Assembly: GCA_016234365.1 (NCBI GenBank)
Contig: JACRER010000080.1
Location: 2,619-66,618, forward strand
Length of the DNA stretch: 64,000 nt
Direction: 5' to 3'
DNA from: Elusimicrobiota bacterium
GTDB taxonomy: Bacteria > Elusimicrobiota > Elusimicrobia > Elusimicrobiales > UBA9959
This document shows, one piece after another, positions 4,662-23,894 of this stretch; position 1 is the first letter of the stretch, and each line of letters begins with the position of its first letter. The notes below the pieces were generated by a model that saw nothing but the letters and a program-made list of their open reading frames with translations, was not told the DNA's origin and made no database searches. Made by a program: the position numbers and the translations under genes.

Positions 4662-5486
4662 CTACGCTTCTTCCGGCGTGTCGGGCGTAGAGATCAGGTG
4701 CGCCGGCTGGGCCTTGGGCTCGGTCTTGGCGAACAGGTTGGCCAGCAGGAACTCGCGGTTCATGCGGGCGATGTTGGCCACCTTCACTTCCTTCGGGCAG
4801 ACCGCTTCGCACTCGTACTCGTTGGTGCAGTTGCCGAAACCCTGCTTGTCCATCACCGCCACCATGTTCAGCGCGCGCACGTGCCGCTCGGGCGCGCCCT
4901 GCGGCAGCAGCGCCAGCTGCGAGATCTTGGCGCCGGTGAAGAGCATGGCCGCGCCGTTGGGGCACGACGCCACGCACGCGCCGCAGCCTATGCAGGCCGC
5001 CGCGTCCATCGCCTCTTCGGCGTCTTCTTTCTTTATGGGGGTGGCGTTGGCGTCCTGCGCCGCGCCGGTGTTAACGGAGATAAAGCCGCCGGCCGCGATG
5101 ATGCGGTCCAGCGACGAGCGGTCCACGGCCAGGTCCTTGAGCACCGGGAAAGCCTTCACGCGCCACGGCTCCACCGTTATCACGTCCCCGTCGCGGAAGC
5201 GACGCATATGCAGCTGGCACACCGTGGAGTGCTCGTCCGGGCCGTGCACGTCGCCGTTCACCACCAGGCCGCAGCTGCCGCAGATGCCCTCGCGGCAGTC
5301 GCTTTCGAAGGCGATAGGGCTGCCGCCTTTTTTGAGCAGGTCGTCGTTGAGGATGTCCAGCATCTCAAGGAACGACATGTCCGGGGACACGTCCTTGACC
5401 TTGTAGGAGACCATCTTGCCGGGCTCTGCAGGGCCGGCCTGGCGCCAGACGCGCACGGTAACCGTGAAGTGTTTAGAGCTGGTCAT
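4662..5486 (-). CDS. sdhB: succinate dehydrogenase / fumarate reductase iron-sulfur subunit
   Basis: A 2Fe-2S cysteine cluster (CREGICGSCG) and two ferredoxin-type clusters (CIGCGACVASCP, CTNEYECEAVCP). It sits directly downstream of the flavoprotein subunit. Confidence 0.92.
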   Translation of the reverse strand: MTSSKHFTVTVRVWRQAGPAEPGKMVSYKVKDVSPDMSFLEMLDILNDDLLKKGGSPIAFESDCREGICGSCGLVVNGDVHGPDEHSTVCQLHMRRFRDGDVITVEPWRVKAFPVLKDLAVDRSSLDRIIAAGGFISVNTGAAQDANATPIKKEDAEEAMDAAACIGCGACVASCPNGAAMLFTGAKISQLALLPQGAPERHVRALNMVAVMDKQGFGNCTNEYECEAVCPKEVKVANIARMNREFLLANLFAKTEPKAQPAHLISTPDTPEEA

Positions 5487-5487
5487 G

Positions 5488-7401
<1,914 letters not shown>

Positions 7402-7423
7402 GTTTCCTCCGGATCCGTTAAAT

Positions 7424-8107
7424 TCAGTTTATCACTACCATCTGGCCGCCGGCTTCGGCGGCTTTAAGGTCCACGCCGGCCAGGAAGTACAGCGAGATCA
7501 GCGCGAAGCCTATCATCAGTACGGCCACGGCCAGGCCGCCCAGCTTTATGAGCGGGGTGTACTTGGGGTGGCTCAGGCCCAGCGTCTGGAAGGCGCTCTG
7601 CATGCCGTGGCTGAGGTGCAGCGCCAGCGCCGCGGCGCCGGCGATGTAGACCGCGGTGAAGACCGGCGCGCGGAAGGCGCCGGTGACCATCTGGTAGAAG
7701 CCCATGGAATGGTCCACGAAACGGAACGTCAGCATGTGGTAGACAAGATAGGCCAGGATGGCCGCGGCGGTGTAGAGCATGGTGGCCGAGCCTATGGTGC
7801 GGCCGCCCTGCCACTTGCGCGCCTCGTAGCCGCGCGGCGCGTTGAGGAAGTCTTCCACGCGTACCCAGACCCCGGCCGCGATATGCGCCAGGAAGACGGC
7901 CAGCAGCCCGACTTCCAGGAACGGGGTGACCGGGTTGGAGAGCAGCAGGTCCACCCAGCCGTTGTAGGCGGCCTCGCCCTTGAACAGCAGCAGGTTCTCG
8001 GCGAGGTGAACCAGCATGAAGCCTCCCAGCATGAGGCCCGAGGCGGCCATCACGGCCTTGCGGCCTATGGAGGTGGTCACGAAGCGTTTGAGGAAAGTAA
8101 TATCCAT
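7424..8107 (-). CDS. sdhC: succinate dehydrogenase cytochrome b subunit (single-subunit b558-type anchor)
   Basis: A 227-aa polytopic membrane protein with about five hydrophobic helices and conserved His residues. It is the first gene of the sdhCAB array, as in Bacillus/Wolinella-type enzymes. Confidence 0.8.
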
Positions 8108-8283
8108 AAAATACAGAACTCCTGATATTCGCGAATAAATTGTATCCTAAAACATTAAAGGGCCTGGCGGCAAGGCCGATTTGCTTAACCGCGTTATTAG
8201 ATAAAATAATATCCGCAGGCCTGCCCGCCCGGTCGGGAAATTTAATAGAATAGGAATACGTTAATACACAGGGGAGGAAGTAC

Positions 8284-11200
8284 ATGAAGCGCCATTTCCT
8301 GATCTCAGCCGCATTTTTCCTGCTGGCCGGTTCCGCGGCCGCCTACGAGAAGATAGAGTTCAAGGCCCAGTTCCTCAGCGCGGCTTTCCTTAAGCCCGCC
8401 GCGGTGGCCGTGGACTCCGGCAAAACCTTCGTGGCTGACTCCAAGGCTAACGCGATCTTCGTTTTCGACGAGACCGGCAAGCAGCTGAAAAAGATAGAGG
8501 GCGCCCTGAAGGGCCCCGAGGCGCTGGCCTTCGGCGGCGGCCGGCTTTACGTGGCCGATACGGGTAATTCCCGCATAGTGGTCTTCGACCCGGACGGCAA
8601 GTTCCTGTGGGCTTTCTCCGGAGACGGCTCCGCCCCCGGCCAGCTTGACGCGCCGCGCGGCCTGGCCTACGGGCCGGACAGCCGGCTTTACGTCTCCAAT
8701 ACCGGCAATTCCCGCGTGGACGTCTTTAATTCTGACGGTATTTACCTTTACGGCTTCGCCGCGGCCAAGACCGACGGCATTACCAAGCTCAACCCGGCCA
8801 AGCTCTCCCTGAACCAGGCCGGGGACATCTTTGTGTCCGATCCCGACAAGGCCCTGCTGCAGAAGTACGACAGGACGGGGAAACTCCTTAAAGAGTACCA
8901 GCTGCCCAACGACGGGGCGGTGGCCGATAAACGCGGCCAGCTTTATATCATCAATTCCCGCGAGGGGAAGGTGAGCGAGTACACCGATGGCGGCGAGAAA
9001 GTGGGGACTTTCGGCACCAAGGGCAAAGGGAAGATGGAGTTCAAGAACCTGCGCGACATCGCCATAGACGGCGCGGGCAACCTCTACCTGTGCGACGACG
9101 AGAACAAAAAGGTGGTGGCGATAAACCTGGAGAGCGCCGAAACCGGCCCCGAGCTGCCCCTGGCTTCCATCCTGGACCGCTTTACCGTAAAGGGCCCGGT
9201 GGCCAAGGCCGCGTTCAAGGCCGACGTCTTTGCGGTCACGCCCGAGGGCAAGATAGTGGCTTATATGCCCGAGGCCAAAGAAATAGTCCTGATAGAGAAC
9301 GGCACCAAGAAAACCCTGGTGCGCGAAGGCAAACTGCAGGGGCAGGTGCGCGCGCCCAAGGGGATCTTTATAGACCCCAAGGGCCTCATCTACGTGGCGG
9401 ACACCGGCAACGACCGCGTGCAGATCTTCAACGCCGACGGCACTTATAACAACATGTTCGGCGAGAGCGGTTCCGGCGACGGGCAGTTCAAGTCCCCGTC
9501 CGCCGTGGCCGTCAACGCCAAGGGCAATATTTACGTGGCGGACACCCGCAACCGCAAGGTCAAGGCCTTCAGCCCGGACGGCATCTTCCTGTTCGCCGTC
9601 GGCCCCGAGGTGGGCAACCTGATCCTCTCCAACCCGGTGTCCGTGCGCTGCGACGAGAACAAGAACGTCTATGTGCTGGATTCCGCGCTGAAGAAGGTGG
9701 TGGTGCTGGACTCCATGGGCAAGTTCCTGCGCATCTGGGACGATTCCGGCGCCCTGCAGGACCCGGCCTCCCTGACCTACGATAATAAGGGGTTCTTCTA
9801 CATCCTGGACCGCGGCACGTTCAACGTCAAGATCTTCGACGCCGACGGCCGGTTCACCGCTTCCTTCTTCGCCAAGGGCCGCGGCGAGCGCGAGCTGTGG
9901 GCCCCGCAGTACATGGCCTTCCGCAACGACAAGATCTATATCTCCGACATGGAGAACGCGCGCATCCTGGGTTTCGACATCAGCTACCTGCCGGAGGAGC
10001 CTTTTGACCTGAAGGGCACCGCCCTGGAGAACAGCGTGAAGCTTTTCTGGAAGGCCAAGGCCAATGCCTGGACCAACGGCTCCAAGATCTACCGCCGCAA
10101 AGGGCTGGACGGGGAACTTGTGGAGGTCGGCGCGCCCAAGGAGAAAACTTTCGAGGACACCTCCCTGACCCCGGACGCCACCTATTACTACTATGCCGCC
10201 GGCCTGAGCGTGACCGGAGTGCGGGGCGGGCTGTCCGCCCCGTTCGAGGTCTATTACAAAGGCCCCGAGGCCGCTGCCGCCGCGCCCGAGGCCGTAGTGG
10301 ACAACAAGAACGTGGCGCCCATGGAGATAGTGGCGCCGGAGCTCAACTACATCTTCTCGGCCAACTACAAGTATTACCAGAAGAACCCGGTGGGCAAGAT
10401 AGCCGTTAAGAATAACACCGACAGCGATTTCTCCAACGTCAAGCTGTCCTTCTTCTTCAAGGACTTCATGGACTTCCCGAGCGACACCGTGGTGCCGCTG
10501 GTGAAGGCCCGTTCCCAGGCCGACGTGGACCTGTCCGCCACGCTCAACAACCGCGTGCTCAGCATCACCGAGGACACGCCGATACAGTGCCAGCTGACCC
10601 TGACCTATTACCAGGACGGAGCGGAGAAAACTTTCACCCTTAACAAGCCGGTGAAGGTGCTGTCCAAGAACGCCATAGTCTGGGACAAGCCCCAGCGCCT
10701 GGCCAACTTCATCACGCCCAAGGATACGCCCGTCTTCGGTTTCAGCCGGTTCGCGCTGAACGAGAAAGGCAAGTTCGAGGATGAGACGGAATTCCTCAAC
10801 GGCGACACGCTGACCGCGCTGATGGTGTGGGAAGCGCTCGGCGAACATGGCCTGAGCTACCTGTCCGACCCGGTCAGCCCGTACGCGGTGCTGAAGTCTT
10901 CCAGGGAAGTGGTGCTGGACACCGTGCAGTTCCCGCGCAGCACGCTGAAGCTGCGCAGCGGCGACTGCGACGACCTGACCGCGCTGTTCGCGTCCATCCT
11001 GGAGGCTTCCGGCGTGAAGACCGCCCTGCTGGACTACCCGGCGCACATCGCGCTGATGTTCGACACCGGCGCCACCGACGCGCGCGAGGTGGGCATCCCC
11101 GAAGAGTACCTGATAAAGTACAACAATACCTGGTGGGTGGGCCTGGAGACCACGATGGTGGGCAAGGACTTCTATGAAGCGGTCAAGCACGAGGCCGACC

Positions 11201-11754
11201 TCTACCGCCGCTCCAAGGACGACGTGCGCGTGATAGAGGTGCGTTCCGCCTGGGCGGAATTCGAGCCGGTCACCCTGCCCGAGACCGAGGTGGAGAGCTA
11301 CCCGGACAAGGCCAAGTTCCTCGCCCGCGTAAAAGAGGCTTCCGCGGCCCTGCTGAAGGCCCGCTACGACTACTTCAAGGATTACTTCGGCAAGGTGCTG
11401 GCGGAGAATCCCGCCGACATGGACGCCAATATCAACCTCGGCATGCTGACCGCCCGCAACGGCGAGTCCGCCGAGGCGGTAAAGTATTTCAACGCGGTGC
11501 TCGCCAAGGAGCCGTTCAACGCCGCCGCGCTCAACGACCTGGGCAACGTCTCATTCCTGGACAAGAAATACGACGACGCCAAAAAGTATTATTTCGACGC
11601 CGCCAAGGCCGACCCGTACGACGCGGAGATCTGGCTTAACCTGGCGCGCGTTTCCGACAAGCTGGGCAAAAAGGACGACGTGAAGGCCTTCGCCGAGCGC
11701 GCTGCCAAGATAGACCCGGCCGTAAAGAGTACGGGCGATAAGCTGCTGAAATGA
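8284..11754 (+). CDS. large secreted mosaic protein: two NHL-repeat beta-propellers + Fn3 + transglutaminase-like cysteine-protease core + TPR
   Basis: Signal peptide MKRHFLISAAFFLLAGSAAA. About 10 NHL repeats (LYVADTGNSRIVVFDPDGKF, IYVADTGNDRVQIFNADGTY and others). An Fn3-like segment (VKLFWKAKANAWTNGSKIYRRKG...ATYYYYAAGL). A Cys/His/Asp core RSGDCDDLTALFASILEASGVKTALLDYPAHIALMFD. C-terminal TPRs. Confidence 0.85.
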   Translation: MKRHFLISAAFFLLAGSAAAYEKIEFKAQFLSAAFLKPAAVAVDSGKTFVADSKANAIFVFDETGKQLKKIEGALKGPEALAFGGGRLYVADTGNSRIVVFDPDGKFLWAFSGDGSAPGQLDAPRGLAYGPDSRLYVSNTGNSRVDVFNSDGIYLYGFAAAKTDGITKLNPAKLSLNQAGDIFVSDPDKALLQKYDRTGKLLKEYQLPNDGAVADKRGQLYIINSREGKVSEYTDGGEKVGTFGTKGKGKMEFKNLRDIAIDGAGNLYLCDDENKKVVAINLESAETGPELPLASILDRFTVKGPVAKAAFKADVFAVTPEGKIVAYMPEAKEIVLIENGTKKTLVREGKLQGQVRAPKGIFIDPKGLIYVADTGNDRVQIFNADGTYNNMFGESGSGDGQFKSPSAVAVNAKGNIYVADTRNRKVKAFSPDGIFLFAVGPEVGNLILSNPVSVRCDENKNVYVLDSALKKVVVLDSMGKFLRIWDDSGALQDPASLTYDNKGFFYILDRGTFNVKIFDADGRFTASFFAKGRGERELWAPQYMAFRNDKIYISDMENARILGFDISYLPEEPFDLKGTALENSVKLFWKAKANAWTNGSKIYRRKGLDGELVEVGAPKEKTFEDTSLTPDATYYYYAAGLSVTGVRGGLSAPFEVYYKGPEAAAAAPEAVVDNKNVAPMEIVAPELNYIFSANYKYYQKNPVGKIAVKNNTDSDFSNVKLSFFFKDFMDFPSDTVVPLVKARSQADVDLSATLNNRVLSITEDTPIQCQLTLTYYQDGAEKTFTLNKPVKVLSKNAIVWDKPQRLANFITPKDTPVFGFSRFALNEKGKFEDETEFLNGDTLTALMVWEALGEHGLSYLSDPVSPYAVLKSSREVVLDTVQFPRSTLKLRSGDCDDLTALFASILEASGVKTALLDYPAHIALMFDTGATDAREVGIPEEYLIKYNNTWWVGLETTMVGKDFYEAVKHEADLYRRSKDDVRVIEVRSAWAEFEPVTLPETEVESYPDKAKFLARVKEASAALLKARYDYFKDYFGKVLAENPADMDANINLGMLTARNGESAEAVKYFNAVLAKEPFNAAALNDLGNVSFLDKKYDDAKKYYFDAAKADPYDAEIWLNLARVSDKLGKKDDVKAFAERAAKIDPAVKSTGDKLLK

Positions 11755-11765
11755 GGGGAGGGAAC

Positions 11766-12293
11766 ATGAAGAAGATACTTTTAACGCTTGCGCTGGTGTT
11801 CTCCGTGAACTCCGTCTACGCCGCCGACAAGGGCGACTGGAAGGATTGGTATTCCGGCATGCTCAAGGGCCTCAGGGCCAAGGTGGAGAAGAAACTGGAA
11901 TCCAAGAACCGCGTTACCGCCGTGGCCGCCGTGCGCGGCGCCAAGCAGGGCGGGGACCCGCGCGCCCTTTACTGGAAGGGCGGCGTATCCGAGGCCGCCA
12001 GCAAAAAGCTGGAGGCCGAGAAAAAGCAGCTTACCGACGCGCTGCAGCTGGTGATGGACGGCAGCCTGCCGGAAGGCAAGGCCGCCATCGGCAAGTTCAT
12101 AAAAGAGAACCCGGAGAGCGTTTACCTGCCGGAGGCCAAAGAGGCGCTGGAGCGCCTGCCGGCCGAAGAGGCCAAGCCCGCGGAGGTGAAGCCCGGCGAG
12201 GCCAAGCCTGTGGAAGCTAAACCCGCCGAAACTAAGCCCGCGGCGGACAAGCCGGCGGAGAAAGCCCCGGAAGCGCCCAAGGCCGGCAACTGA
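11766..12293 (+). CDS. small secreted protein with low-complexity (A/E)KP-rich C-terminus
   Basis: ORF 11751..12293 trimmed to MKKILLTLALVFSVNSVYA (signal peptide). It starts 12 nt after the NHL gene stop. The tail reads AKPAEVKPGEAKPVEAKPAETKPAADKPAEKAPEAPKA. Confidence 0.65.
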   Translation: MKKILLTLALVFSVNSVYAADKGDWKDWYSGMLKGLRAKVEKKLESKNRVTAVAAVRGAKQGGDPRALYWKGGVSEAASKKLEAEKKQLTDALQLVMDGSLPEGKAAIGKFIKENPESVYLPEAKEALERLPAEEAKPAEVKPGEAKPVEAKPAETKPAADKPAEKAPEAPKAGN

Positions 12294-12306
12294 CGGCTCG
12301 CCCGCA

Positions 12307-12341
12307 AATAAAAAGCCCCGCTTCCATGCGGGGCTTTTTTA
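12307..12341. terminator. bidirectional intrinsic terminator
   Basis: aaataaaaaGCCCCGCttccatGCGGGGCtttttt lies between convergent genes. An A-run precedes the stem and a T-run follows it. Confidence 0.85.
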
Positions 12342-12356
12342 TTGGGGTGGAGGAGG

Positions 12357-13307
12357 TCAATCGTCCGGGGTTTCCTGCGGGGCGGGAGCGGCCGCCGGGG
12401 CGGTGCCGGTTGTTGGCGCCGGAGGCGGCAGCCAGGACCGCGACGCCTCGGCCGGCTTTATGGGTTCCGAAGGCTGGGTAACGGGCTGGCCGTCCTTCTT
12501 CTGCGACTCGGGCACTACCCAGGTATTGTCCGGCTTTTCCGGCACGATGCCGGCCGCGTTGTCCGCGGGGCCCTGGCCGGGCAGCCAGGTGCGGTCCGGC
12601 GGCAGCGGGGGGCCGGGCATGGGCACGGCGGGCTCGTTCTTTGCGGCGGCTTTGGGCAGTTCCGCCGGCACGCCGCCGGCGGCTTTCAGCCTGGTGTAGA
12701 CGTCAGTGGCGGAGCGCCAGAGCATCTGGCGCAGCAGCGAGGTTTCCTTGCGTCCAGGAGGGGCGAACGGGTAAAGCGGCATCATCAGCAGGTGGAAGGT
12801 GGTCTTGTTGGTGCCTTCGGTTTCCACGCGTACCTGTTTCTCGGGCGCCGCGAAATCCGCGGTCAGGTAATAGTTCTCGCGCAGCGACGCCGGGATGATG
12901 AAGATGAACCCGGTATCTACCAGGAAAGACTTGAAAAGGTCCCCGTAGGTCCACTTGCCCAGGGTGGTCAGTTCCAGGCGCAGGGCCCCGCGCCCGCGGC
13001 CCTGGTCGTACAGGCCGGCTTCGCCGAACACCTGCCGGGCCAGTTCCGCGAAGTCCGCGGCGGCTCCCGGCTCGGCCTGGACCGGCTTTATGACGGTCGG
13101 CCTGGAGATGGAGCCCTCGCCTATGGAATCCGTAGGCGCCCGGTAAGGGAAGACGCGCCAGGACACCTGTACGTCCGCGAACGGGGTTATTTCCCGGTCC
13201 GCCAGCATGGCGGCGGCGGTTTCGCGCCGCACCTTGATGTCCCCGGAATTGAACGAGGCGCAGCCGCACAGCGCGGCGGCGGCCAGTAAAAAGGTAAGTT
13301 TCTTCAT
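12357..13307 (-). CDS. lipoprotein of unknown function with Pro-rich C-terminal tail
   Basis: MKKLTFLLAAAALCGCASF lipobox. 316 aa. No recognisable catalytic motif. Confidence 0.7.
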   Translation of the reverse strand: MKKLTFLLAAAALCGCASFNSGDIKVRRETAAAMLADREITPFADVQVSWRVFPYRAPTDSIGEGSISRPTVIKPVQAEPGAAADFAELARQVFGEAGLYDQGRGRGALRLELTTLGKWTYGDLFKSFLVDTGFIFIIPASLRENYYLTADFAAPEKQVRVETEGTNKTTFHLLMMPLYPFAPPGRKETSLLRQMLWRSATDVYTRLKAAGGVPAELPKAAAKNEPAVPMPGPPLPPDRTWLPGQGPADNAAGIVPEKPDNTWVVPESQKKDGQPVTQPSEPIKPAEASRSWLPPPAPTTGTAPAAAPAPQETPDD

Positions 13308-13413
13308 TATGCTCCGGCTGAGGCGGGCCTGATTTAACTCATATGAAACGGCCCGCTATTTTTACTATATTATATTATCAGGTCGTTTTCTTCAATACGT
13401 TCACGGGGAACCT

Positions 13414-14610
13414 ATGGCGCAAAAAAAGATAGAGAGGGTGATCAGGGCGGAGGGCAAGCCCGACGTGGTGATCCGCCTGGCCAAGGTGCAGGACATGCGC
13501 CGCATCCAGATGCTTTACGCCGAGGTCTACGGCGGCTCCTATTCCGTGCCTATAGTCACGGACAAGGAGAAGATGCGCCGGGCCATAGAGGATAACGAGT
13601 ATTACTGGCTGGTGGCGGAATGCCAGGGCCGCGTAGTGGGCAGCCTGGTCTACGCGCTGGACCTGTATTACCGCAACTCAAAAGCCTTCGGCGCGGTGGT
13701 GAGCCAGGAATTCCGCAAGCTGGACCTGGCCTACACCATGATGAAACTGGTGCTCGACGACATCACGCATACCAAGGACCTCGTAGACCTGGTTTACGCC
13801 ACCACCCGCACCGCCAATTACGCTCCGCAGAAGCTGACCGAGAGCCTGGGCTTCATAAAGCTGGGGATCTTCCCCAATACGCACAAGGTGCAGGACAACG
13901 AGACGCACTGCCTGACCGGTTACTTCACCGAGAAGGCGCTGCAGCGCCGGCGCCAGCGGCCCCGCATCATCCCTGAGGTGGCGCCTTTCTACGACATCGT
14001 GCGGCGCCAGATCAACCTGGATAAACCCCAGATAAAGGACGTCAAAGGGGACTACAGCGACCACGCCCGCAAGATCCCGCTGCTCCACTTCGAGGCCATT
14101 ACCGCCCCGGAGTTCGTGAAGAACCGCTGGAAGAAGACCCGGAGCAACAGCTTCTTCGAGCACATCTTCATGCCGTTCCACGAGCCAAATTTGATCCTGA
14201 TAACGCCGGACCAGGGCACCGAGGTGTACCTTACCTTCAACCAGAAGGACAAGTACAGCGTGGTGGTGGGCGGCGTGACCAACGAGCGGAGCTTTGCGGT
14301 GGTGCTGGAAAGCATAGCGCAGAAGGTGAGCGCCATGGACATGGCCTACGTGGAGGTCATTATAGACGGCTACGCGCCCCACATCCAGCGCGACGCCCTG
14401 GACGCGCGCTTTATCCCCAGCGCTTATTTTCCCTGCGCCAAGCGCATGGGCGGCAAGCGCTACGACTGCATCGTCTTCTCGCGTACGTTCGACATGCTGG
14501 ACTTCCGCAACGTCAAGATCATCTCGCTCTACAAGAACTTCCTCAAGGAATACCTGAAGCTCTGGCGCGAGAACTATATAGAACTGGCCTTCAAGACCGA
14601 GCCGAAATAA
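13414..14610 (+). CDS. GNAT-fold acyltransferase-like protein with ~220-aa C-terminal extension
   Basis: The N-terminal ~170 aa look like a GNAT domain (VVIRLAKVQDMRRIQMLYAEVYGG...WLVAECQGRVVGSLVYA...TESLGFIKLGIFPN). The acetyl-CoA P-loop-like segment is degenerate (QEFRKLDLAYTMM). It is the first gene of a coupled operon. Confidence 0.65.
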   Translation: MAQKKIERVIRAEGKPDVVIRLAKVQDMRRIQMLYAEVYGGSYSVPIVTDKEKMRRAIEDNEYYWLVAECQGRVVGSLVYALDLYYRNSKAFGAVVSQEFRKLDLAYTMMKLVLDDITHTKDLVDLVYATTRTANYAPQKLTESLGFIKLGIFPNTHKVQDNETHCLTGYFTEKALQRRRQRPRIIPEVAPFYDIVRRQINLDKPQIKDVKGDYSDHARKIPLLHFEAITAPEFVKNRWKKTRSNSFFEHIFMPFHEPNLILITPDQGTEVYLTFNQKDKYSVVVGGVTNERSFAVVLESIAQKVSAMDMAYVEVIIDGYAPHIQRDALDARFIPSAYFPCAKRMGGKRYDCIVFSRTFDMLDFRNVKIISLYKNFLKEYLKLWRENYIELAFKTEPK

Positions 14611-14618
14611 GAGGAGCC

Positions 14619-15788
14619 ATGGCCGACCTTTCCGTTGAAGATAAGCTGCCGCCGGTGTATAAGCCGCTCAAGAGCCGCGCCGCCGTGGACGCGCTGTTCG
14701 AGACGCCGGCGTTCGGCTATTCCCCGAAAACCTCGAAGGCCTTCCTGGCCGCCATGCGCGCCGCGCTGGCCTTCCAGGGCGGCCGTGCCCCGGTGCTGAA
14801 AGCGCTCTACAAAGCGGAAGGCTTCCGCCCGGCGTCGGTCAGGGCGGAAAAAGACGTGGCGGGCATCCCTTACGTTTTCGTTGCCGCGCTCAAAGAGCGG
14901 GACCTTACCACCCTGCCTTATTCGAAGATAGTGCTGGAGCTCAAATCCAGCGGCACTTCGGGCCAGCGCAGCCGCATGCAGCTGGATAAGGGCTCGCTGA
15001 TGCGCGTGCGGCGCATGGCCTGGAAGGTCTTCGAGGGCCTTGGCCTGACGGACCTGGAGCGCGCGCACGACTATATCTGCTTTACGTACGACCCGGAGGT
15101 CGCCAAAGACCTGGGCACCGCCTGGACGGACAAGCTGCTGAGCGGTTTCACCAAAAAAGGCGAGATCTTCTACACGTTCCGCTGGAGCAAGGCGAAGAAC
15201 GATTTTTATTTCGACATCGACGGCGCGGTCTCGGCCATGAAGAAGTTCGAGGCGGCCGGCTCGCTGGTGCGGCTGGTGGGGTTCCCGGCCTTCGCGCTGA
15301 AACTCACCGAAGAGTTCAAGAAACGCTTCGGCCGCTATCCGCGCCTGAACCCGGAGTCCAGCGTGGTGACCGGCGGCGGCTGGAAGACCCTGGCCGACGA
15401 GGCCATGGACAAGAAGGTGTACCGCAAGATCCTGGCGGACAACCTGGGTATCCCCGTGGCCAACGTGCGCGACCTGTTCGGCATGGTGGAGCACGGCGTG
15501 CCGTACGTGGACTGCCGGCTGGGCAATTTCCATATTCCCAATTACGGCCGCGTCATAGCGCGGCATCCCGGCACGCTGGCGCCGCTGGGGTATAACAAGG
15601 CCGGCCTGCTGCAGTTCATTACCCCGTACCTGACCAGCTACCCGTCGCTTTCGGTGCTGTCCTCGGATTTCGGCCTGGTGCGGCCCAAGTGCTCCTGCGG
15701 CCTGAGCGGCCCGGTGCTCGAGATCCACGGCCGCGCCGGCGTGAAGAAGCTGAAGGGCTGCGCCATAAGCGCCGCCACCATGCTATGA
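14619..15788 (+). CDS. LuxE-like acyl-protein synthetase (adenylate-forming)
   Basis: About 389 aa. IPYVFVAALKERDLTTL...LKSSGTSGQRSRMQLD matches the LuxE-family FK...SSGTTG..S.h adenylation motif. An AGGAG Shine-Dalgarno lies 8 nt after the upstream stop. Confidence 0.7.
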   Translation: MADLSVEDKLPPVYKPLKSRAAVDALFETPAFGYSPKTSKAFLAAMRAALAFQGGRAPVLKALYKAEGFRPASVRAEKDVAGIPYVFVAALKERDLTTLPYSKIVLELKSSGTSGQRSRMQLDKGSLMRVRRMAWKVFEGLGLTDLERAHDYICFTYDPEVAKDLGTAWTDKLLSGFTKKGEIFYTFRWSKAKNDFYFDIDGAVSAMKKFEAAGSLVRLVGFPAFALKLTEEFKKRFGRYPRLNPESSVVTGGGWKTLADEAMDKKVYRKILADNLGIPVANVRDLFGMVEHGVPYVDCRLGNFHIPNYGRVIARHPGTLAPLGYNKAGLLQFITPYLTSYPSLSVLSSDFGLVRPKCSCGLSGPVLEIHGRAGVKKLKGCAISAATML

Positions 15789-18427
15789 AAATACACAACA
15801 CCTATTTGTTCGGCAAAGCCTGCGACAAGGCCGCGTGGACCCCGGCGGAGCTGGAAGAACTGGGGCTGAAGGCGCAGAAGGCGCGCGCGCTGATGCGCGG
15901 CGCGTCCCGCGATTACATAGTCACCACGCTGGCCAAGGCCGGCGCCCTGTTCGAGAAAGGCGGCAAGTACCGCAAGGCCGCCCTCGCCCACCTCAAAGAC
16001 CACATCGCGTTCTCCCCGCCGGTCATAGACAAGAGCCTGGACGTGATCCCGGAGCTGCTCAACCGCCAGGGCATGAACAAGCGCATGAACATGGAACTGT
16101 TCCTGCCGTACGCGCTGGAAGCGCCGGTGGAGCGCCGCGGTTACGACGGGCTGGTGCGCGCCGCCCCGAAAGGCGTGGTGCTGCACGTCGGGGCCGGCAA
16201 CGTGTTCCTGGGCATCCTCGATTCCATGGTGATAGGTTTCCTCACCAAGAACGTCAATATCGTCAAGCTTTCCTCTTCGGGCTCCAACTTCATCAACCTC
16301 TTCATGGAGGCGCTGAAGGAAGTGGACGAGAAAGGCATCCTTTCGAAATGCGCCGCCATAGTCAGCTGGAAGGGCGGCAGCCAGGCGCTGGAGGAAGCGG
16401 CGCTTAAAAACGTGAACGCGGTCTTCGTGTGGGGCGGTTACGACGCGGTGCAGTCCTACCGCAGGATAGCCCCCATAGACGTGCGCGTGGAAGGCTTCGG
16501 CCCCAAGACCAGCGTGGGCGTGGTGTTCGCCAGCTGCGTGGACAACGAGGGAATGGGCGCGGTGGCGCAGCGCGCCGCCACGGACGCCTCCCTGTGGGAC
16601 CAGGCCGCCTGCTCGTCGCTGCATACCCTTTATTTCATAGCCCCGGCCAAACGGCACAAGGAGCTGGCGGGGTCTTTTCTGAAAGAAGCGAAAGGGCATT
16701 TTGCCCGGCTGGCCAAAGAGCTGCCGCCCGGCAAGCTTTCGCCCGACGAACAGGTGGAGATAAACAAGGCACGCGAACTGGCCCGCGTGGACGCGGCGCT
16801 GGGCAACGCCTCTTTCGCCAGTTCCAAACCTTCCACCGACTGGACCGTGATCTACGAAACCGACCCGGTGTACCGGGTATCCCCGCTCAACCGGGTGCTT
16901 TACGTGAAGACCGTGGAGAGCCTGGAAGAAGTGCGCGAACGCCTGATGCCGCTGCGCGGCTATATCCAGACCGTGGGCGTGGGCGGCTCCATAGAGCGCA
17001 AGAAGGTTCTGGAGACGCTGGCCCCTGCCGGCATAGCCCGCGTGGTAAAGCTCGGCAAGATGCTGGAGGAGGCCAACGGCTCCCCGCACGACGGGATCTA
17101 CCCCATGATGTCGCTGGTCAACTGGCTGCCCATAGAGGAAAAGCCCTCCCAGCTGGACCGCCTGAGCGAACTGGTGGAGCACGCCCGCAACCGCAGTCCC
17201 TTTTACGGCCGGCATTTTAAGGGCGTGCCGCGCATCACCGCCCTGGACGATTTCCTGAAAGTCCCGTTCCTGGAAAAGCACCACGTTCTGGAGAACACGC
17301 CTCCGGACAGCGCGGACCTGCTGACCTCCAAGGTGCAGCGCGGCATCTTCTTTGCGAGCGGCGGAAGCACCGGCCAGCCGAAATACGTTTTTTACGACCA
17401 GCACGAATACGACCACACGTGCCGGATGCTGGGCTTCACGCTGGAGGCCGCGGGCCTTAGCGAGAAGGACGTCATCGCCAACCTGTTCATAGCCGGCAAC
17501 CTCTGGTCCAGCTGGCTTTCCGTGGAGAAAGCCATCGCCTATACCAAGGCCATCTCCGTGCCGGTGGGCAGCAACCTGCCGCTGGAAAATATCGTGGGCT
17601 ACCTGGAGGACTTCCAGGTTACGGCCATCATAGGCCTGCCCTCCTTCCTCGTCAAACTGGCGGAGTTCGCCAGGGCGAACAAAAGCAAGTACAAACTGAA
17701 TATCAAACGGATCTTCTACGGCGGCGAGTACGTGGGTTCGGAGATGGTGAAGTTCTTCAAGGGCGTGTTCCCCGGGGTGGACGTGCGCTCGGCGGGCTAT
17801 GCCACGGCGGACGCCGGCGTGATAGGTTTTCAGTGCCCGGTCTGCGTAAAGGGGCAGCACCACCTGTTCGCCTACAGCCAGTTCATAGAGTTCGTGGACC
17901 AGGATACCCTGAAGCCCGTGAAGCAAGGCGAGATAGGGGAGCTGGTGGTGACGGGGCTTTCTAAAAAGCACATGCCCATCATCCGCTACCGCGTGGGCGA
18001 CCTGGGCCGCTGGCTCATGAAGCCGTGCGCGTGCGGCCGCAAAGAACCTTTGTTCGAGATCCTCGGCCGCTGCGACGACCGCATCCACGTCGGCGGCGCG
18101 CACCTGTTCGTCAACGATATCCAGAACGCTTTGGGCAAGGTGCCGGACCTGACCTTCAATTTCCAGGTCGTTATAGGCAAGAAAGGCCACCGGGACACTC
18201 TGGCCATCCGCGTAGAGGTAAAAGACCCGGCCGCGCTGGCGCGGGCGGGGGAACTGGCGGACCTGCTGTGGCGGCAGGTAGAGCAGCACTGCGAAGACCT
18301 GCACGAAAGCGTGCGGATGAGGTGGCTGGATAAGCCGGTCATCGAAGTGCTCAAGCCCGGGACCATCGAGCGCGTACTGCGGACCGGCAAGATCCGTAAG
18401 GTGATAGACAAGCGCGTTAAGGTTTAA
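15785..18427 (+). CDS. fusion protein: LuxC-like acyl-CoA/acyl-protein reductase (N) + PaaK/F390-synthetase-like adenylating enzyme (C)
   Basis: ORF 15689..18427 trimmed to MKIHNTYLFG at 15785 (ATGA overlap with the upstream stop). N-terminal half: VVLHVGAGNVFLGILDSMVIGFLTKNVNIVKLSSSGS and the Cys motif WDQAACSSLHTLYF, as in LuxC. C-terminal half: FASGGSTGQPKYVFYD, YGGEYVG, YATADAGVIGFQC, GELVVTGLSKKHMPIIRYRVGDLGRW, as in phenylacetate-CoA ligase-like enzymes. Confidence 0.7.
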   Translation: MKIHNTYLFGKACDKAAWTPAELEELGLKAQKARALMRGASRDYIVTTLAKAGALFEKGGKYRKAALAHLKDHIAFSPPVIDKSLDVIPELLNRQGMNKRMNMELFLPYALEAPVERRGYDGLVRAAPKGVVLHVGAGNVFLGILDSMVIGFLTKNVNIVKLSSSGSNFINLFMEALKEVDEKGILSKCAAIVSWKGGSQALEEAALKNVNAVFVWGGYDAVQSYRRIAPIDVRVEGFGPKTSVGVVFASCVDNEGMGAVAQRAATDASLWDQAACSSLHTLYFIAPAKRHKELAGSFLKEAKGHFARLAKELPPGKLSPDEQVEINKARELARVDAALGNASFASSKPSTDWTVIYETDPVYRVSPLNRVLYVKTVESLEEVRERLMPLRGYIQTVGVGGSIERKKVLETLAPAGIARVVKLGKMLEEANGSPHDGIYPMMSLVNWLPIEEKPSQLDRLSELVEHARNRSPFYGRHFKGVPRITALDDFLKVPFLEKHHVLENTPPDSADLLTSKVQRGIFFASGGSTGQPKYVFYDQHEYDHTCRMLGFTLEAAGLSEKDVIANLFIAGNLWSSWLSVEKAIAYTKAISVPVGSNLPLENIVGYLEDFQVTAIIGLPSFLVKLAEFARANKSKYKLNIKRIFYGGEYVGSEMVKFFKGVFPGVDVRSAGYATADAGVIGFQCPVCVKGQHHLFAYSQFIEFVDQDTLKPVKQGEIGELVVTGLSKKHMPIIRYRVGDLGRWLMKPCACGRKEPLFEILGRCDDRIHVGGAHLFVNDIQNALGKVPDLTFNFQVVIGKKGHRDTLAIRVEVKDPAALARAGELADLLWRQVEQHCEDLHESVRMRWLDKPVIEVLKPGTIERVLRTGKIRKVIDKRVKV

Positions 18428-18477
18428 GCTTGTGAGAGAGCGAACATGAGAACTTTGAATTTACTTCAGGAGAACCT

Positions 18478-19992
18478 GTGACTACTTCCAACGAACCTTC
18501 AACTGCGTCCGATCCCGCCATCATTACGGGCGGCATGGGCGTGCGCGTTTCCTGGTGGGTGATGTCCAGGATAGTTTCCCTGATGGGGGGGCTGGGCGTG
18601 GTGTCCGGCACGGGGCTGGAGATAGTTTATCCGCGCCTGCTGCAGGACGGCGACCCGGGCGGCAACGTGCGGCGGGCTTTCACGGAATTGGTCCGCAGGC
18701 AGCCGGCGCTGGCCGGCCCCGTCTGGGAGATCTTCAATAACTATTACATCGAGGGCGGCCGCGCCCCGGGTACGCCTTACAAGGCGGTGCCGCCCTGCCG
18801 CTTCAACCGCATAGACGATTTCCGCCCAGGTCCCGATTCTTTCTGGGAACTGCCGCGCGAGATGCAGGTGCTGGTGATGGCGGCTAACTTCGCGGAGGTC
18901 TGGCTGGCCAAGGAAGGGCATGACAGGCCGGTGGGCATAAATTTCCTGCGCAAGGTGGAGCGCCCGCTGCCGTGGGCCCTGTACGGCGCGATACTGGCCG
19001 GGGCGGCCTACGTGCTGGTGGGGGCCGGCAGCCCGGACGAACTCCCGGCCATGATAGAAAAACTTTCGCGCCACGAACCCGCGGCCATGTCTTTCAAGGT
19101 GTACAACACCAAATCCGACTCCGGTAATTTCTATGCGGCGGTGCGGCCTGGGGAATTGAACACCGCCGGGGCGGCGCTGCCGGCGCCCAAGTTCCTGGCG
19201 ATAGTTTCCTCTTTCGGCCTCGCCAAAGCCCTGGCCGAGGATCCCGTTACCAGGCCTTACGGCTTTGTGGTGGAAAGTTCGGAAGCCGGCGGCCACAGCG
19301 TGGCCCCGTCCAAAGCCTGCTTCGACGCCGACGGCAAACAACGGCTGGTCTACACCGACGCCGATAAAATAGACGTGGCAGCCATAGCCGGGCTCGGCCT
19401 GCCTTTCTGGCTGGCCGGCGCTTACGCGAGCCCCGAGGGGCTGGCCTCGGCGCGCGCCAAGGGCGCCGCGGGGATACAGGTGGGAACGCTGGCCGCGCTC
19501 TCGTCCCAGTCGGGCCTGACGCCGGAACTCCGGGCGCGTGTGCTTAAGCTGCTTGCCGCCGGAAAGCTCAGGATAGAGAACGTAATGGTTTCCCCTACCG
19601 GGTTCCCCTTTAAGGTGGCGCAGGTTCCCGGCACCGTTTCCGAAGAAAGCGTATATAACGCGCGCCCACGCGTCTGCGATGTGGGCCTGCTGCAGGCCGC
19701 TTACCTTAAGCCGGACGGGCAGCTGGGCTACCGCTGCCCCGCCGAACCCGTTGAGATCTTTACGGCCAAGGGCGGCCGCCGGCAGAATACGGAAGGCCGC
19801 GCCTGCCTGTGCAACGCGCTGTTGGCCGCCGCGGGCGTGCCGCAGATCCGCCAGGGCGGCTACGTGGAGCCGCCCATAGTTACGCTGGGCGAGAACCTGG
19901 ATTCCGCCCGCGCGCTGCTGGCCGGCCTGCCGGAAGGGCACGAGAGCTACACCATAGGAAAAGCGCTGGGTTACCTGCGCAAAGCGGCTTAA
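18478..19992 (+). CDS. NMO/FabK/PfaD-like FMN-dependent TIM-barrel oxidoreductase (long form, 504 aa)
   Basis: GTG start with an AGGAG Shine-Dalgarno upstream. Motifs seen: PAIITGGMGVRVS...LGVVSG, ESSEAGGHS, PFWLAGAYASPEGLASARAKGAAGIQVGT. These resemble nitronate monooxygenase / enoyl reductase family signatures. Confidence 0.65.
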   Translation: MTTSNEPSTASDPAIITGGMGVRVSWWVMSRIVSLMGGLGVVSGTGLEIVYPRLLQDGDPGGNVRRAFTELVRRQPALAGPVWEIFNNYYIEGGRAPGTPYKAVPPCRFNRIDDFRPGPDSFWELPREMQVLVMAANFAEVWLAKEGHDRPVGINFLRKVERPLPWALYGAILAGAAYVLVGAGSPDELPAMIEKLSRHEPAAMSFKVYNTKSDSGNFYAAVRPGELNTAGAALPAPKFLAIVSSFGLAKALAEDPVTRPYGFVVESSEAGGHSVAPSKACFDADGKQRLVYTDADKIDVAAIAGLGLPFWLAGAYASPEGLASARAKGAAGIQVGTLAALSSQSGLTPELRARVLKLLAAGKLRIENVMVSPTGFPFKVAQVPGTVSEESVYNARPRVCDVGLLQAAYLKPDGQLGYRCPAEPVEIFTAKGGRRQNTEGRACLCNALLAAAGVPQIRQGGYVEPPIVTLGENLDSARALLAGLPEGHESYTIGKALGYLRKAA

Positions 19993-20016
19993 TAGCCGTC
20001 CCTGTCGGCGGCTGCA

Positions 20017-20051
20017 AAATAAAAAAGCCGGGGAGTTTCCCCGGCTTTTTT
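20017..20051. terminator. bidirectional intrinsic terminator
   Basis: aaaataaaaaaGCCGGGGagtttCCCCGGCtttttt lies between the convergent NMO-like and DUF4105-like genes. Confidence 0.85.
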
Positions 20052-20064
20052 GCGTCCCGCGGAC

Positions 20065-21165
20065 CTAGGGGATGAGCGTGTGCAGGGTGCCGGAGTTGAT
20101 GTCCGTGAATTCTGCGCCCAGCAGGCCGCGCTTCTGCAGATCCGTGATGACCATCAGCGGCATGGTCGCCTTGACGTTGTAGACCATGTAGGGGATGGCC
20201 CACATCTTTATCTGATTCTCCTTGGGGAGAACGCGGTTGAGCAGGATGAGCAGGTTGTTGGTGCAGTTGTTCTTTATGGTGTTGTAGAACTCGCCCTCGC
20301 GGTCCACCGCGGCCTGCGTCATGGATTCCTGCAGCAGCTGGACCTTCTGCGCGTGCGTGAGCTGCACCGGGTAGGGGACCAGGTGGCCCTTCTCGTGGTA
20401 GATGGTGCGGGCGGCGTATTCTTCCCAGGTGGAGAGGGACCAGATGATGCCGAAGGAATTGCGCAGGCCGGTCAGGGGGGAGAAGCTCTGGCCCACGCGG
20501 GTCTTGCCCTCTATGCTCAGGGCCAGCGCCATCGGTTCCTTGCCCTGCGCGTCCTTCAGGCCGCCTTTTTCGAAAGTGAAGACGAAGAAGGAATGCGCCG
20601 CCACAACTTCCGGCTTGAACGGTTTCTTGATGAAATAGACGTTCTTTATCAGTTCCGGCTTCAGCGTCATCGAGGTCCATTCGTAGGCGGTCTCCGAAGG
20701 AACTTCCATGGAAGCCGTGCGCACGTTGCCCATCACCAGTTCGCCGGTCTTATTCCCGATAATGGTGGCCTGGCGGCGGCGGGGCTGGTAGGCCGGAGGG
20801 GTTACCTCGCCGGCCTTGGGGGTGTACTCCGAGATCTTGGCGACTTTCAGTACCGAAAGATCGTCCGACTGGCGGGCCTGGGCTTCCAGTACCACGGTCT
20901 TGCCCTCGAAAACGGCCGCCTTTTTAGCGGCCAGGTCCAGCTTGAAGAGCTGGCCCTCCACCGTGTTGATGAAGACGCCGCCTTCGTTGACCGAAATTAC
21001 GCCTTTGAGCGAATAGTTCACTCCCCAGCTCTTATCGGCCGGCAGGCCCGCGCCGGGCAACTGCGAGATCTGCGCGGCGTCTATGCTTTCAAGTTCCGAA
21101 AAATTCTGGGCGGCGGACGGGGAAGCCAGCAACAGCAGGGCGAAGGGGAGGGTCTTTAGTATCAT
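20065..21165 (-). CDS. secreted DUF4105-like (Lnb N-terminal periplasmic domain-like) protein
   Basis: ORF trimmed to MILKTLPFALLLLASPSAAQ at 21165. The C-terminal region has an NNCTNNLLILLN motif reminiscent of the conserved NCT motif of DUF4105. Confidence 0.55.
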   Translation of the reverse strand: MILKTLPFALLLLASPSAAQNFSELESIDAAQISQLPGAGLPADKSWGVNYSLKGVISVNEGGVFINTVEGQLFKLDLAAKKAAVFEGKTVVLEAQARQSDDLSVLKVAKISEYTPKAGEVTPPAYQPRRRQATIIGNKTGELVMGNVRTASMEVPSETAYEWTSMTLKPELIKNVYFIKKPFKPEVVAAHSFFVFTFEKGGLKDAQGKEPMALALSIEGKTRVGQSFSPLTGLRNSFGIIWSLSTWEEYAARTIYHEKGHLVPYPVQLTHAQKVQLLQESMTQAAVDREGEFYNTIKNNCTNNLLILLNRVLPKENQIKMWAIPYMVYNVKATMPLMVITDLQKRGLLGAEFTDINSGTLHTLIP

Positions 21166-21306
21166 ACATATATGATACCCTCCCGCCGGGGTTCCTTTAA
21201 GGTGCCAAGGTCCCTGTTTGCGGCGGCAATGTTCCCAGGCCCGGGTAGGCCCTTTGGGAATGAAATTAATATAATCTATTCCATAGGACATTGCCCGGAG
21301 GCCGAT

Positions 21307-22643: not shown

Positions 22644-23894
22644 ATGAGCACACTTCTTGAGGCGTTAAAGACGGAGCGCGGCCGGCACGTGGCCGCTGCG
22701 GTATTCCTGGCGGGTTTGTCCGCCATGTTCCTGTTCTGCGGCTACGAGTTCGTACGATCCCCGGTAGAGGCCATCTTCATGGACCGCGTCGGCGCGGAAT
22801 ATAAACCCTACGCCATAGCGTGCGTGCCGGTAATGATGGGCGTGATGATCTATGGTTACGGACGCCTGCTTTCCGCCGTCGGCGCTAAAAAAGCCATGGC
22901 CGCCTCCATGCTGGGCAGCGCGGTTTTCTTCGCGCTGGCCTGGACCATGCTGGGCGCCGCCGGCCGCTGGCTGGCGTTCCTGCTGCTGGTGTTCAAGGAA
23001 TCCTACGTGGTGATAATCTCCGAGCAGTACTGGTCCTTCATCAACAGCGTGCTCAAGGATGACGAGGGAAAGGTCTTTAACGGGCCGGTGGCGGGCTTGG
23101 GCGCGCTCGGGTCGCTCGTGGGCGGGTGGACGCTGAGCCGTTACGTGATGAACCTGGGCACGGACAAATTCCTGCTTTTCGGCGCGGTCATAATAATCCC
23201 GGCGCTGCTGCTGTTCTGGAACGCCTGCGAAAAGGCCGGGGAGCCCAAGCCGGCGGCCGACGAGGCCGGCGGCCGGAAAGGGCACCTGCACCTGAGCATC
23301 CTTATGGAGAACCGCACGGTGCTGTTCATCGCCTTCATCATCTTCTCCGCGCAGGTGGTGGCTACCGCGCTGGACCTGCGCTGGACCCAGCTGGTGCAGG
23401 ATTTTATCCCGCTCAAGGACGCGCGCACGGCCTATATGAGCCAGTTCTGGATGAACGTGAATATTTTCTCGTTCTCCATGCAGTTCCTGCTGACGCCGCT
23501 GCTGCTGCGCTATATCCCGCGCCGCGGCATCCTTACCTCCATCCCGGCGGTGCACATAGCCACGTGCGCGCTGCTGTTCTTCTACCCGTCGCTGGCGCTG
23601 GCGTCGGGGGCGTTCCTGCTGTTCAAAGGCATGGACTATTCCATCTTCCGCGCTTCAAAGGAGACGCTCTACATCCCGTTCTCCTACGACACGCGCTACC
23701 GCGCCAAGCAGGTGGCCGACGCGTTCACGTACCGTTTCGCCAAGGGTGTAACGGGCACGTGGATCTCGGCTATGAAGGCGGCGGGCGCCATGGTGGCGCC
23801 CACCTTCTACCCGGCGCTGGGCGTGGTGTTCTCCGGGGCGTGGCTGGCCATGTCCTTCCCGCTTACCGCCAAACGCGAACAACCCGCCGGCTGA
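22644..23894 (+). CDS. MFS-type transporter, TLC (ATP/ADP antiporter)-like family
   Basis: A 416-aa polytopic membrane protein with about 11-12 helices. The segment FKESYVVIISEQYWSFINSVLKDDEGKVFNGPVAGLGALGSLVGG resembles the ElWgs..FWsfaN...eAKR.Y region of TLC/Npt-like carriers. Confidence 0.5.
   Translation: MSTLLEALKTERGRHVAAAVFLAGLSAMFLFCGYEFVRSPVEAIFMDRVGAEYKPYAIACVPVMMGVMIYGYGRLLSAVGAKKAMAASMLGSAVFFALAWTMLGAAGRWLAFLLLVFKESYVVIISEQYWSFINSVLKDDEGKVFNGPVAGLGALGSLVGGWTLSRYVMNLGTDKFLLFGAVIIIPALLLFWNACEKAGEPKPAADEAGGRKGHLHLSILMENRTVLFIAFIIFSAQVVATALDLRWTQLVQDFIPLKDARTAYMSQFWMNVNIFSFSMQFLLTPLLLRYIPRRGILTSIPAVHIATCALLFFYPSLALASGAFLLFKGMDYSIFRASKETLYIPFSYDTRYRAKQVADAFTYRFAKGVTGTWISAMKAAGAMVAPTFYPALGVVFSGAWLAMSFPLTAKREQPAG

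Follow-up and report, generated by a model that had tools for sequence, protein, structure and literature searches.

Three adjacent genes, called here A, B and C, are the subject of this report. They lie on a 64,000-nucleotide (nt) stretch of DNA from an Elusimicrobiota bacterium (the whole stretch is referred to below as the window) and encode a tandem-GNAT acyltransferase, a LuxE/LeupA-type acyl-protein synthetase and a fusion of a LuxC-type reductase with a PaaK-type ligase, respectively. Together, they form a cassette which is found at the same syntenic position in virtually all Elusimicrobiales genomes. Judging from the sequences, this cassette has a named and characterised relative, the leupeptin (leup) operon, but differs from it in the number of ligases, in the exporter and in the GNAT. 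A-B-C probably constitutes a minimal leup-like pathway, independent of nonribosomal peptide synthetases (NRPS), which would lead to an N-acyl amino- or dipeptide aldehyde. The gene that follows, D, is a strain-specific insertion; it stands outside the conserved cassette and is not needed by the proposed scheme.

An earlier note on this DNA had described A to D as a coupled operon with a small-molecule function, for example the synthesis of an acyl-aldehyde or of an N-acyl product, and knew of no characterised cluster of such composition. The general idea of a small-molecule pathway is retained, but with three genes instead of four, and leupABCD does contain the same enzyme set, although the cassette is not an exact copy of it; the discovery of a characterised cluster of this kind was among the outcomes that the note had named as refuting its reading, and in substance it has occurred. 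The features discussed below are the following (window positions and strand; aa, amino acids).

13414-14610, + strand: gene A, 398 aa, tandem-GNAT acyltransferase (N-terminal GNAT at about aa 18-175, diverged second GNAT fold at about aa 225-360, long C-terminal helix)
14619-15788, + strand: gene B, 389 aa, LuxE/LeupA-type acyl-protein synthetase
15785-18427, + strand: gene C, 880 aa, LuxC::PaaK-like fusion with the LeupB architecture
15917-17125, + strand: LuxC-type thioester reductase domain of C (aa 45-447, Pfam LuxC)
17144-18415, + strand: PaaK-type adenylate-forming ligase domain of C (aa 454-877, NCBIfam PaaK)
18478-19992, + strand: gene D, 504 aa, GTG start, FabX/FabK/NMO-fold flavoenzyme
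13308-13413, + strand: divergent intergenic spacer 5' of A, probable promoter region of the cassette
20020-20051, no strand assigned: bidirectional intrinsic terminator hairpin (from folding and from homology to the hairpins of relatives)

Homology of proteins B and C to the leupeptin enzymes

The synthesis of leupeptin (acetyl-Leu-Leu-argininal), a protease inhibitor, requires a single N-acetylation, the formation of two peptide bonds and the reduction of one carboxylate. The leupABCD operon of Klebsiella michiganensis/oxytoca, Photorhabdus and Xenorhabdus (Li et al. 2020, doi 10.1002/anie.202005506) comprises genes for a LuxE-family protein (LeupA), a LuxC::ligase fusion (LeupB), a PaaK-like ligase (LeupC) and a GNAT (LeupD), next to a gene of the major facilitator superfamily (MFS); in all, this amounts to a GNAT, a LuxE/LuxC pair and two ligase modules of the PaaK type. 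The operon has been reported to produce leupeptin (PMC11480411), and primers and locus tags for leupA and leupB are available (PMC8283571). A scan of metagenome contigs for the leupA primer returned eight loci, and the operon was recovered from one of them (L091), in which both leup primers match exactly and are 1,235 bp apart, as published. In order, this locus has genes for an MFS transporter, a LuxE-family protein of 378 aa, a protein of 803 aa that combines LuxC (374 bits) and AMP-binding domains, a PaaK-like ligase of 446 aa and a GNAT of 305 aa. Since LeupB of this locus carries both a LuxC and an AMP-binding domain, the LuxC::PaaK fusion of the window has the LeupB architecture.

Protein B aligned with LeupA over its full length (32% identity, 194 bits), compared with 80 bits for Photorhabdus LuxE. 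Similarly, C aligned with LeupB over 736 colinear aa spanning both domains (28% identity, 218 bits, E = 4e-64), compared with 105 bits for Photorhabdus LuxC, and the ligase domain of C was 30% identical to LeupC. By these scores, B and C are much closer to LeupA and LeupB than to the LuxE and LuxC proteins of bioluminescence. Both B and LeupA end in GRA...(K/R)(G/S)CA; moreover, a C-terminal (S/T)GK...DxR motif was present in all the fusions and a cysteine tail in all the LuxE-type proteins.

The GNAT, LuxE, LuxC and PaaK-like assignments of the earlier note were borne out by profile hidden Markov models (HMM), and all the motifs that it quoted are present in the translations. Protein B scored 112 bits against Pfam LuxE and 82.7 bits against the NCBIfam equivalog LCFA_lig_LuxE, whose cut-off of 550 was not reached. 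Its short C-terminal tail, VKKLKGCAIS, contains Cys381 and takes the place of the customary C-terminal subdomain. Both this KGCA tail and the GGGWK loop were found in 69/69 orthologues of B. According to the cryo-electron microscopy study of LuxC-LuxE, the lysine loop GGGWK and the cysteine tail set LuxE apart from CoA ligases (PMC9157457). LuxE adenylates its substrate, forms a thioester with itself on the C-terminal KGC tail and passes the acyl group to the LuxC cysteine, where it is reduced by NADPH (PMC9157457). The presence of both elements in B thus indicates that B is an acyl-protein synthetase.

Protein C scored 231 bits against Pfam LuxC (aa 45-447), 46.7 bits against AMP-binding and 38.6 bits against AMP-binding_C_2; against the NCBIfam equivalog LCFA_red_LuxC it scored 120.5 bits and did not reach the cut-off of 750. 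The LuxC domain contains the GAGNV nucleotide motif and the invariant Cys276 within DQAACSS, and its sequence matched the LuxC chain 7xc6 in the PDB. The ligase domain (aa 454-877) obtained about 153 bits with NCBIfam PaaK, which is so far under the equivalog cut-offs of 646-700 that it is not considered as a PaaK orthologue. It nevertheless has the P-loop SGGSTGQPK, the hinge RYRVGD and the lysine of a terminal TGK, and its sequence matched the PaaK chains 4r1l, 2y27 and 2y4o as well as the PaaK-like ligases AjiA1 and 6siw. From these motifs and matches, the C-terminal domain of C is assigned as a complete PaaK-type ligase. Two adenylate-forming modules had indeed been proposed earlier; both are present but they are not equivalent, B being of the acyl-protein synthetase type and C containing a complete PaaK-type ligase. 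Across the 68 full-length orthologues of C, the P-loop and the terminal TGK were intact in every sequence, the hinge in 66 and DQxACS in 62, the LuxC-domain motifs being retained in 62-66/68.

By tblastn, luxD had no match in the 64-kb window, and no luciferase-like gene (luxAB) was found among the neighbours of the operon, in agreement with the earlier statement that the system is not bioluminescent.

Conservation of the cassette in Elusimicrobiales

Relatives were scanned for fusion protein C with one genome per species. C was encoded at 79 loci (48-90% identity). By the titles of their records, these loci nearly all belong to Elusimicrobia and the remainder to unclassified organisms; one assembly is labelled Elusimicrobium minutum. 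Enough upstream sequence was available at 70 loci and enough downstream sequence at 62. B was located upstream of C in 70/70 loci and A upstream of B in 69/70, with median gaps of 26 nt between B and C and of 0 nt between A and B. The A and B orthologues of these 70 loci were 45-92% identical to those of the window. In the most distant loci the flanking genes are different and A-B-C is retained.

The sole informative locus without A upstream of B and C, L054, comes from the same assembly as L010 (JAUSCK01). The metagenome bin of L054 also contains a second, complete copy of the cassette; L054 may therefore reflect a mixed bin or a duplicated copy in decay.

In the window, the junctions read directly in the sequence are those of four tightly packed genes on the + strand, as had been described. 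A and B are separated by 8 nt that contain GAGGAG (TAA-GAGGAGCC-ATG), the stop of B and the start of C overlap in ATGA at 15785-15788, and the 50 nt between C and D include AGGAG (CAGGAGAACCTGTG). In some other genomes, unrelated genes interrupt the operon, which indicates that translational coupling is not essential. Between B and C, the interrupting genes code for DUF1007 and NicO metal transporter proteins, a DNA methylase, or a DUF362 Fe-S protein and a phosphonate-binding protein (L052, L053, L057 and L067); between A and B, an AAA_14/DUF4143 ATPase gene is found in some genomes. L048, L075 and L011 are also interrupted. The genes inserted between A and B, between B and C or after C were considered as clues to function and set aside, as their annotation is that of unrelated cargo. 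In one distant locus (L003), a gene for an asparagine-synthetase-like amidotransferase (10644-12575 of that locus) begins 7 nt past C and could provide an additional amide-forming enzyme. A type I polyketide synthase and a phosphopantetheinyl transferase are encoded five genes upstream at the same locus (1-2086).

Protein A as a tandem GNAT

Protein A scored 24.5 bits against Pfam Acetyltransf_1 (cut-off 20.7), and its AlphaFold model had a pLDDT of 84 and a pTM of 0.84. Foldseek comparison of the N-terminal half retrieved the ArsN, phosphinothricin, RimL and SpeG N-acetyltransferases (probability 1.0, target-normalised TM-scores 0.66-0.78), and this GNAT domain is nearest to amino-acid alpha-N-acetyltransferases such as ArsN and PAT. 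About 220 aa of the protein had initially been left without assignment. They are now modelled as a second GNAT-like fold: the C-terminal half has the strand-helix order of a GNAT in the model, and the profiles of the two halves, built from 116 family members, align in the GNAT register (hhalign E = 2.5e-4, probability 43%). On both grounds A is read as a tandem GNAT in which the second half is a diverged GNAT fold, a reading whose support is modest but consistent.

The CoA pyrophosphate loop of A is RKLDLA, with the variants RKHDLA and RKLNLA in Elusimicrobial orthologues, and does not conform to the canonical R/QxxGxG/A; the degeneracy of this loop had been recognised correctly. The homologue of A from Kitasatospora retains a canonical RxxGxA loop (HRSGGLA). 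An exhaustive profile search gave the A family a size of 477 clusters at 50% identity. The view that A is restricted to Elusimicrobia, which came from a word-indexed search, was overturned by this exhaustive HMM search and by tblastn against plasmids.

Gene D is inserted between C and its terminator

Lack of joint conservation in related genomes had been named beforehand as an outcome that would refute the four-gene unit, and it applies to D, which was found in 0/62 of the loci with enough downstream sequence. D adjoins C in only one contig, whose D is 99% identical. In one relative, a D homologue (76% identity) lies at about 170 kb from the cassette, behind the TRAP transporter genes dctQM. 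A divergent gene of 507 aa beside the triad in L001 was examined as a candidate homologue of D and proved to be unrelated.

The strong bidirectional terminator predicted past D is present as a GC-rich hairpin with A and T runs at its sides, AAAAAAGCCGGGGAGTTTCCCCGGCTTTTTT, at 20020-20051. This hairpin was missed by a simple terminator scan and was confirmed through folding (-30 kcal/mol, z = -4.4; 0/200 shuffled sequences folded equally well); it is common to the operon and to a convergent gene at 20065-21291 (- strand). Hairpins homologous to it stand directly 3' of C in L004, L013 and L022, from which it follows that D was inserted between the stop of C and the ancestral terminator. In this strain D is probably co-transcribed with A-B-C as an accident of the insertion, and its tight packing results from the insertion rather than from a conserved coupling. 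The site after C (18428-20064 in the window) is in fact an insertion hot spot, occupied by unrelated genes that vary between genomes (L004-L082), such as tocopherol-cyclase-like and HEAT-repeat genes in L015, L016 and L019 and TPR genes elsewhere. Past the hot spot the syntenic backbone resumes with an Lnb_N/DUF5818 gene, an M29 aminopeptidase gene and a transporter gene.

As for the protein itself, the proposed NMO/FabK/PfaD-like nature of D is supported by its predicted fold and not by the Pfam NMO profile, which gave 22.8 bits (cut-off 28) over residues 262-349 only. The AlphaFold model (pLDDT 87, pTM 0.91) matched Helicobacter pylori FabX and FabK best in Foldseek (E = 4e-14 to 1e-10), and also NMO and PfaD. 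Four invariant cysteines, C400, C420, C443 and C445, suggest an Fe-S site like that of H. pylori FabX. The family of D is very large, with >7,900 hits to flavoenzymes of about 505 aa that have the FabX/FabK/NMO fold.

Related clusters in other organisms

An A-type GNAT was found in seven records of Streptomycetaceae plasmids, and the fusion gene was present in 7/7 of them. The operon order in the three that were inspected is PaaK-family ligase, MFS, GNAT, LuxE, LuxC::ligase. The Kitasatospora GNAT is 28% identical to A over the full length, second domain included. No published function was found in the literature for this Streptomycetaceae cassette.

In metagenomes, L099 has the order MFS, A, LuxE, fusion, ligase, and L100 has the triad alone. 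Furthermore, the GNAT is fused to an MFS transporter in two loci: in L102, LuxE and the LuxC fusion are followed by an MFS::A fusion protein (P0435, 6971-9370), and in L098 an MFS and an A-type tandem GNAT form a single protein (P0424, 8001-10412). These fusions tie the GNAT family to small-molecule export. The family also occurs outside the cassette, as indicated by L101, where an A-type GNAT (8001-9122) lies near an AMP-binding ligase without LuxC or LuxE on a contig that looks archaeal, with genes for the ribosomal proteins L44e and S27e and for hydrogenase.

The fusion gene was also matched in two Salmonella plasmid records, CP053580.1 and CP054717.1. The first is a conjugative IncF plasmid of Salmonella enterica, which carries, at 4560-9437 of the locus (L086), genes for LuxE, an 802-aa LuxC::ligase and a PaaK-family ligase, and no GNAT; this leup-like set may be a mobile peptide-aldehyde cluster. 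A gene for a peptidase-domain ABC transporter is found a few kb upstream of it. Taken together, these bridging clusters place the triad in a broad family of compact cassettes, whose characterised member is leup.

Proposed pathway and alternative explanations

Homology, colinearity, intact catalytic motifs and the conservation of the triad are established from the sequences. The substrates, the succession of steps and the product are inferred by analogy with leupeptin, as follows. A would N-acylate the alpha-amino group of a first amino acid, whose carboxylate would then be adenylated by the PaaK-type domain of C and coupled to a second amino acid. As there is only one ligase in the cassette, one peptide bond is expected, compared with two in leupeptin. 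B would adenylate the terminal carboxylate and load it as a thioester on Cys381 of its own tail. Finally, the acyl group would pass from the tail to Cys276 in the LuxC domain of C, where reduction by NAD(P)H would release the aldehyde. Aldehydes of this kind typically inhibit serine and cysteine proteases in a covalent and reversible manner.

Several observations weigh against this pathway. Tblastn with LeupC and with the Kitasatospora ligase as queries hit only the ligase domain of C, so that the 64-kb window has no match for a standalone LeupC ligase; nor did it contain a match to an MFS exporter of the Leup or Kitasatospora type. The nearest transporter-like gene (22644-23894; TLC 22.6 bits for a cut-off of 21, MFS_1 19.4 bits and below its cut-off) belongs to the syntenic backbone and is absent from distant loci. 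No orthology between A and LeupD was detectable: the HMM of the A family misses LeupD, the hhalign probability is 16%, and the weak BLASTP match (E = 2e-4) covers the N-terminal GNAT only. The CoA loop of A is degenerate, with RKLDLA in place of R/QxxGxG/A. As identities to the Leup proteins are about 30%, the class of substrate could differ. Finally, syntenic conservation over a whole order is unusual for a secreted secondary metabolite and fits a housekeeping role better. Outside the primary leupeptin paper, the literature offered no description of the roles of the individual Leup enzymes and no characterised cassette of the A type.

That the triad has a fixed syntenic position in virtually all genomes of the order and lacks an exporter leads to a housekeeping version of the scheme, which we regard as improbable: A-B-C would make an intracellular or envelope-bound N-acyl amino aldehyde, for instance a regulator of the cell's own peptidases, and the tandem GNAT, with its degenerate CoA loop, would receive its acyl group directly from the cysteine tail of LuxE or from an acyl-adenylate, independently of CoA. 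A different division of labour would leave each enzyme with the textbook reaction of its family. The ligase of C would convert an aryl or acyl acid into an acyl-CoA, A would transfer the acyl group to the nitrogen of one amino acid, and B and LuxC would reduce the carboxylate, giving an N-acyl mono-amino aldehyde without any peptide bond. This is an appreciable but minor possibility. It is in line with the best matches of the C ligase domain, which are PaaK CoA-ligase models and solved PaaK structures, with the single ligase domain and missing LeupC, and with the proximity of A to amino-acid N-acyltransferases. However, the two PaaK-type ligases of leup and of the Streptomycetaceae cassettes match the two peptide bonds of leupeptin, which suggests that these ligases form amides; the PaaK-like ligase AjiA1 is among the PDB hits, and the CoA loop of A is degenerate. 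PaaK-like ligases which couple directly without CoA are known, the chemistry of AjiA1 being an example. The triad could also be a fatty acid reductase of the Lux type, in which B and LuxC would supply fatty aldehyde or alcohol for envelope lipids while A and the PaaK domain would take care of an N-acyl or CoA-dependent side reaction. Pfam LuxE and LuxC scores are strong, order-wide synteny without an exporter would suit a housekeeping lipid function, and LuxC relatives such as TabE reduce fatty acyl thioesters in other pathways (bioRxiv 10.1101/2025.08.11.669332). Nevertheless, B and C fall far under the cut-offs of the NCBIfam equivalogs (LuxE 82.7 vs 550; LuxC 120.5 vs 750), their bit scores are two to three times higher against LeupA and LeupB than against Photorhabdus LuxE and LuxC, luxD is lacking in the window, and an obligatory amino-acid-type GNAT and a PaaK ligase would remain without explanation as partners. 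We consider this reductase quite improbable.

Two further explanations depend on the neighbourhood of the triad. That A, B, C and the NMO/FabK-like D form one dedicated four-gene pathway was suggested by the position of D, 50 nt after C with its own AGGAG and with the sole terminator past it and none between, so that co-transcription is likely; this is very improbable in view of the absence of D from all 62 related loci, its occurrence beside C only in the contig with the 99%-identical copy, the position of its 76%-identical homologue in one relative, about 170 kb from the cassette of that genome and after dctQM, and the presence after C, in relatives, of the terminator found after D, which marks an insertion into a hot spot. 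It is more improbable still, and to an extreme degree, that the LuxE and LuxC pair acts in the modification of a surface glycan. Such a role has been proposed for flagellin glycosylation islands of Aeromonas and enterobacteria, which contain luxC and luxE homologues together with an acyl carrier protein (ACP), FabG and an AMP-dependent synthetase (PMC7874193), and the genes that flank the operon in the window do encode surface proteins and lipoproteins. Still, no glycosyltransferase, pse/leg sugar gene, ACP or FabG accompanied the triad in any of 82 loci, and the flanks vary in distant loci while A-B-C is constant.

If the leup-like pathway is correct, NRPS-independent synthesis of peptide aldehydes of the leupeptin type would extend beyond a few gammaproteobacterial pathogens to a widespread cassette, with representatives in Streptomycetaceae, in many metagenomic lineages and on Salmonella plasmids. 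A whole order of the little-studied Elusimicrobiota, including the assembly labelled Elusimicrobium minutum, would then have it as a core trait. Among the cassettes described here, the three-gene form is the smallest and a convenient model for the cooperation of LuxE tail, LuxC, PaaK-type ligase and GNAT; it could serve, on the same proviso, as a compact tool for the production of peptide aldehydes. For annotation, "acyl-CoA reductase" or "bioluminescence" is misleading on such LuxC::ligase fusions, and the flavoenzyme gene D should not be read as a member of the pathway.

The 5' spacer and the flanking genes

The spacer 5' of A contains an AT block of 21 nt (13358-13378, ATTTTTACTATATTATATTAT) that is invariant in five aligned loci, while the sequence on either side of it diverges. 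Ahead of this block lies a 7-bp palindrome (13323-13329 / 13350-13356), the arms of which covary, GGGCC/GGCCC being replaced by GGGGC/GCCCC in L004 and L034. The AT block and the palindrome look like a conserved promoter or operator. A sigma-70-like match at 13343-13371 had a strength at chance level, and an Rfam search of the spacer gave no match.

The cassette is flanked by two large genes, 8284-11754 (1,156 aa) and 24947-28597 (1,216 aa), both of which are repetitive. From a reading of their sequences, they were judged to encode surface proteins; they are members of the conserved backbone and are unlinked to the cassette in distant genomes. The DNA derives from a genome of the Elusimicrobiales; the best matches of window proteins, at 100% and 99% identity, were in Elusimicrobia metagenome-assembled genomes.

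Comparison with known systems

In its modelled structure, D appears to share the TIM-barrel flavoenzyme fold of FabX, FabK and NMO. However, it is 504 aa long, compared with 310-370 aa for these enzymes, and in relatives it is linked neither to fatty-acid synthesis genes nor to the cassette.

The alignment of the C ligase domain with PaaK runs over the whole length and takes in the C-terminal subdomain with its catalytic lysine. In contrast to PaaK and the PaaK-like coupling ligases (PDB 2y27 and 4r1l; AjiA1, 6wuq), the domain is joined to a reductase, and paa catabolic genes are absent from its surroundings. The GGGWK loop, the KGC tail and the catalytic cysteine of LuxC are common to the cassette and to the LuxC-LuxE system of bioluminescence, in which LuxC stands unfused, whereas in the cassette it is joined to a complete PaaK-type ligase.

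The Streptomycetaceae cassette, exemplified by Kitasatospora sp. NBC_00070 (OHV05_RS01600-01620) and Streptomyces sp. W1SF4 (D1J60_RS34820-34840), has the GNAT-LuxE-fusion order of A-B-C, with an additional MFS gene and a standalone PaaK-family ligase upstream. With the leup operon, the Elusimicrobial cassette shares the order LuxE, then LuxC, then ligase, and a logic that is independent of NRPS. The GNAT gene is the first in the cassette and the last in leup, and it encodes a 398-aa tandem protein compared with the 305-aa LeupD. Whereas the distribution of leup is patchy, the cassette is present throughout the order Elusimicrobiales.

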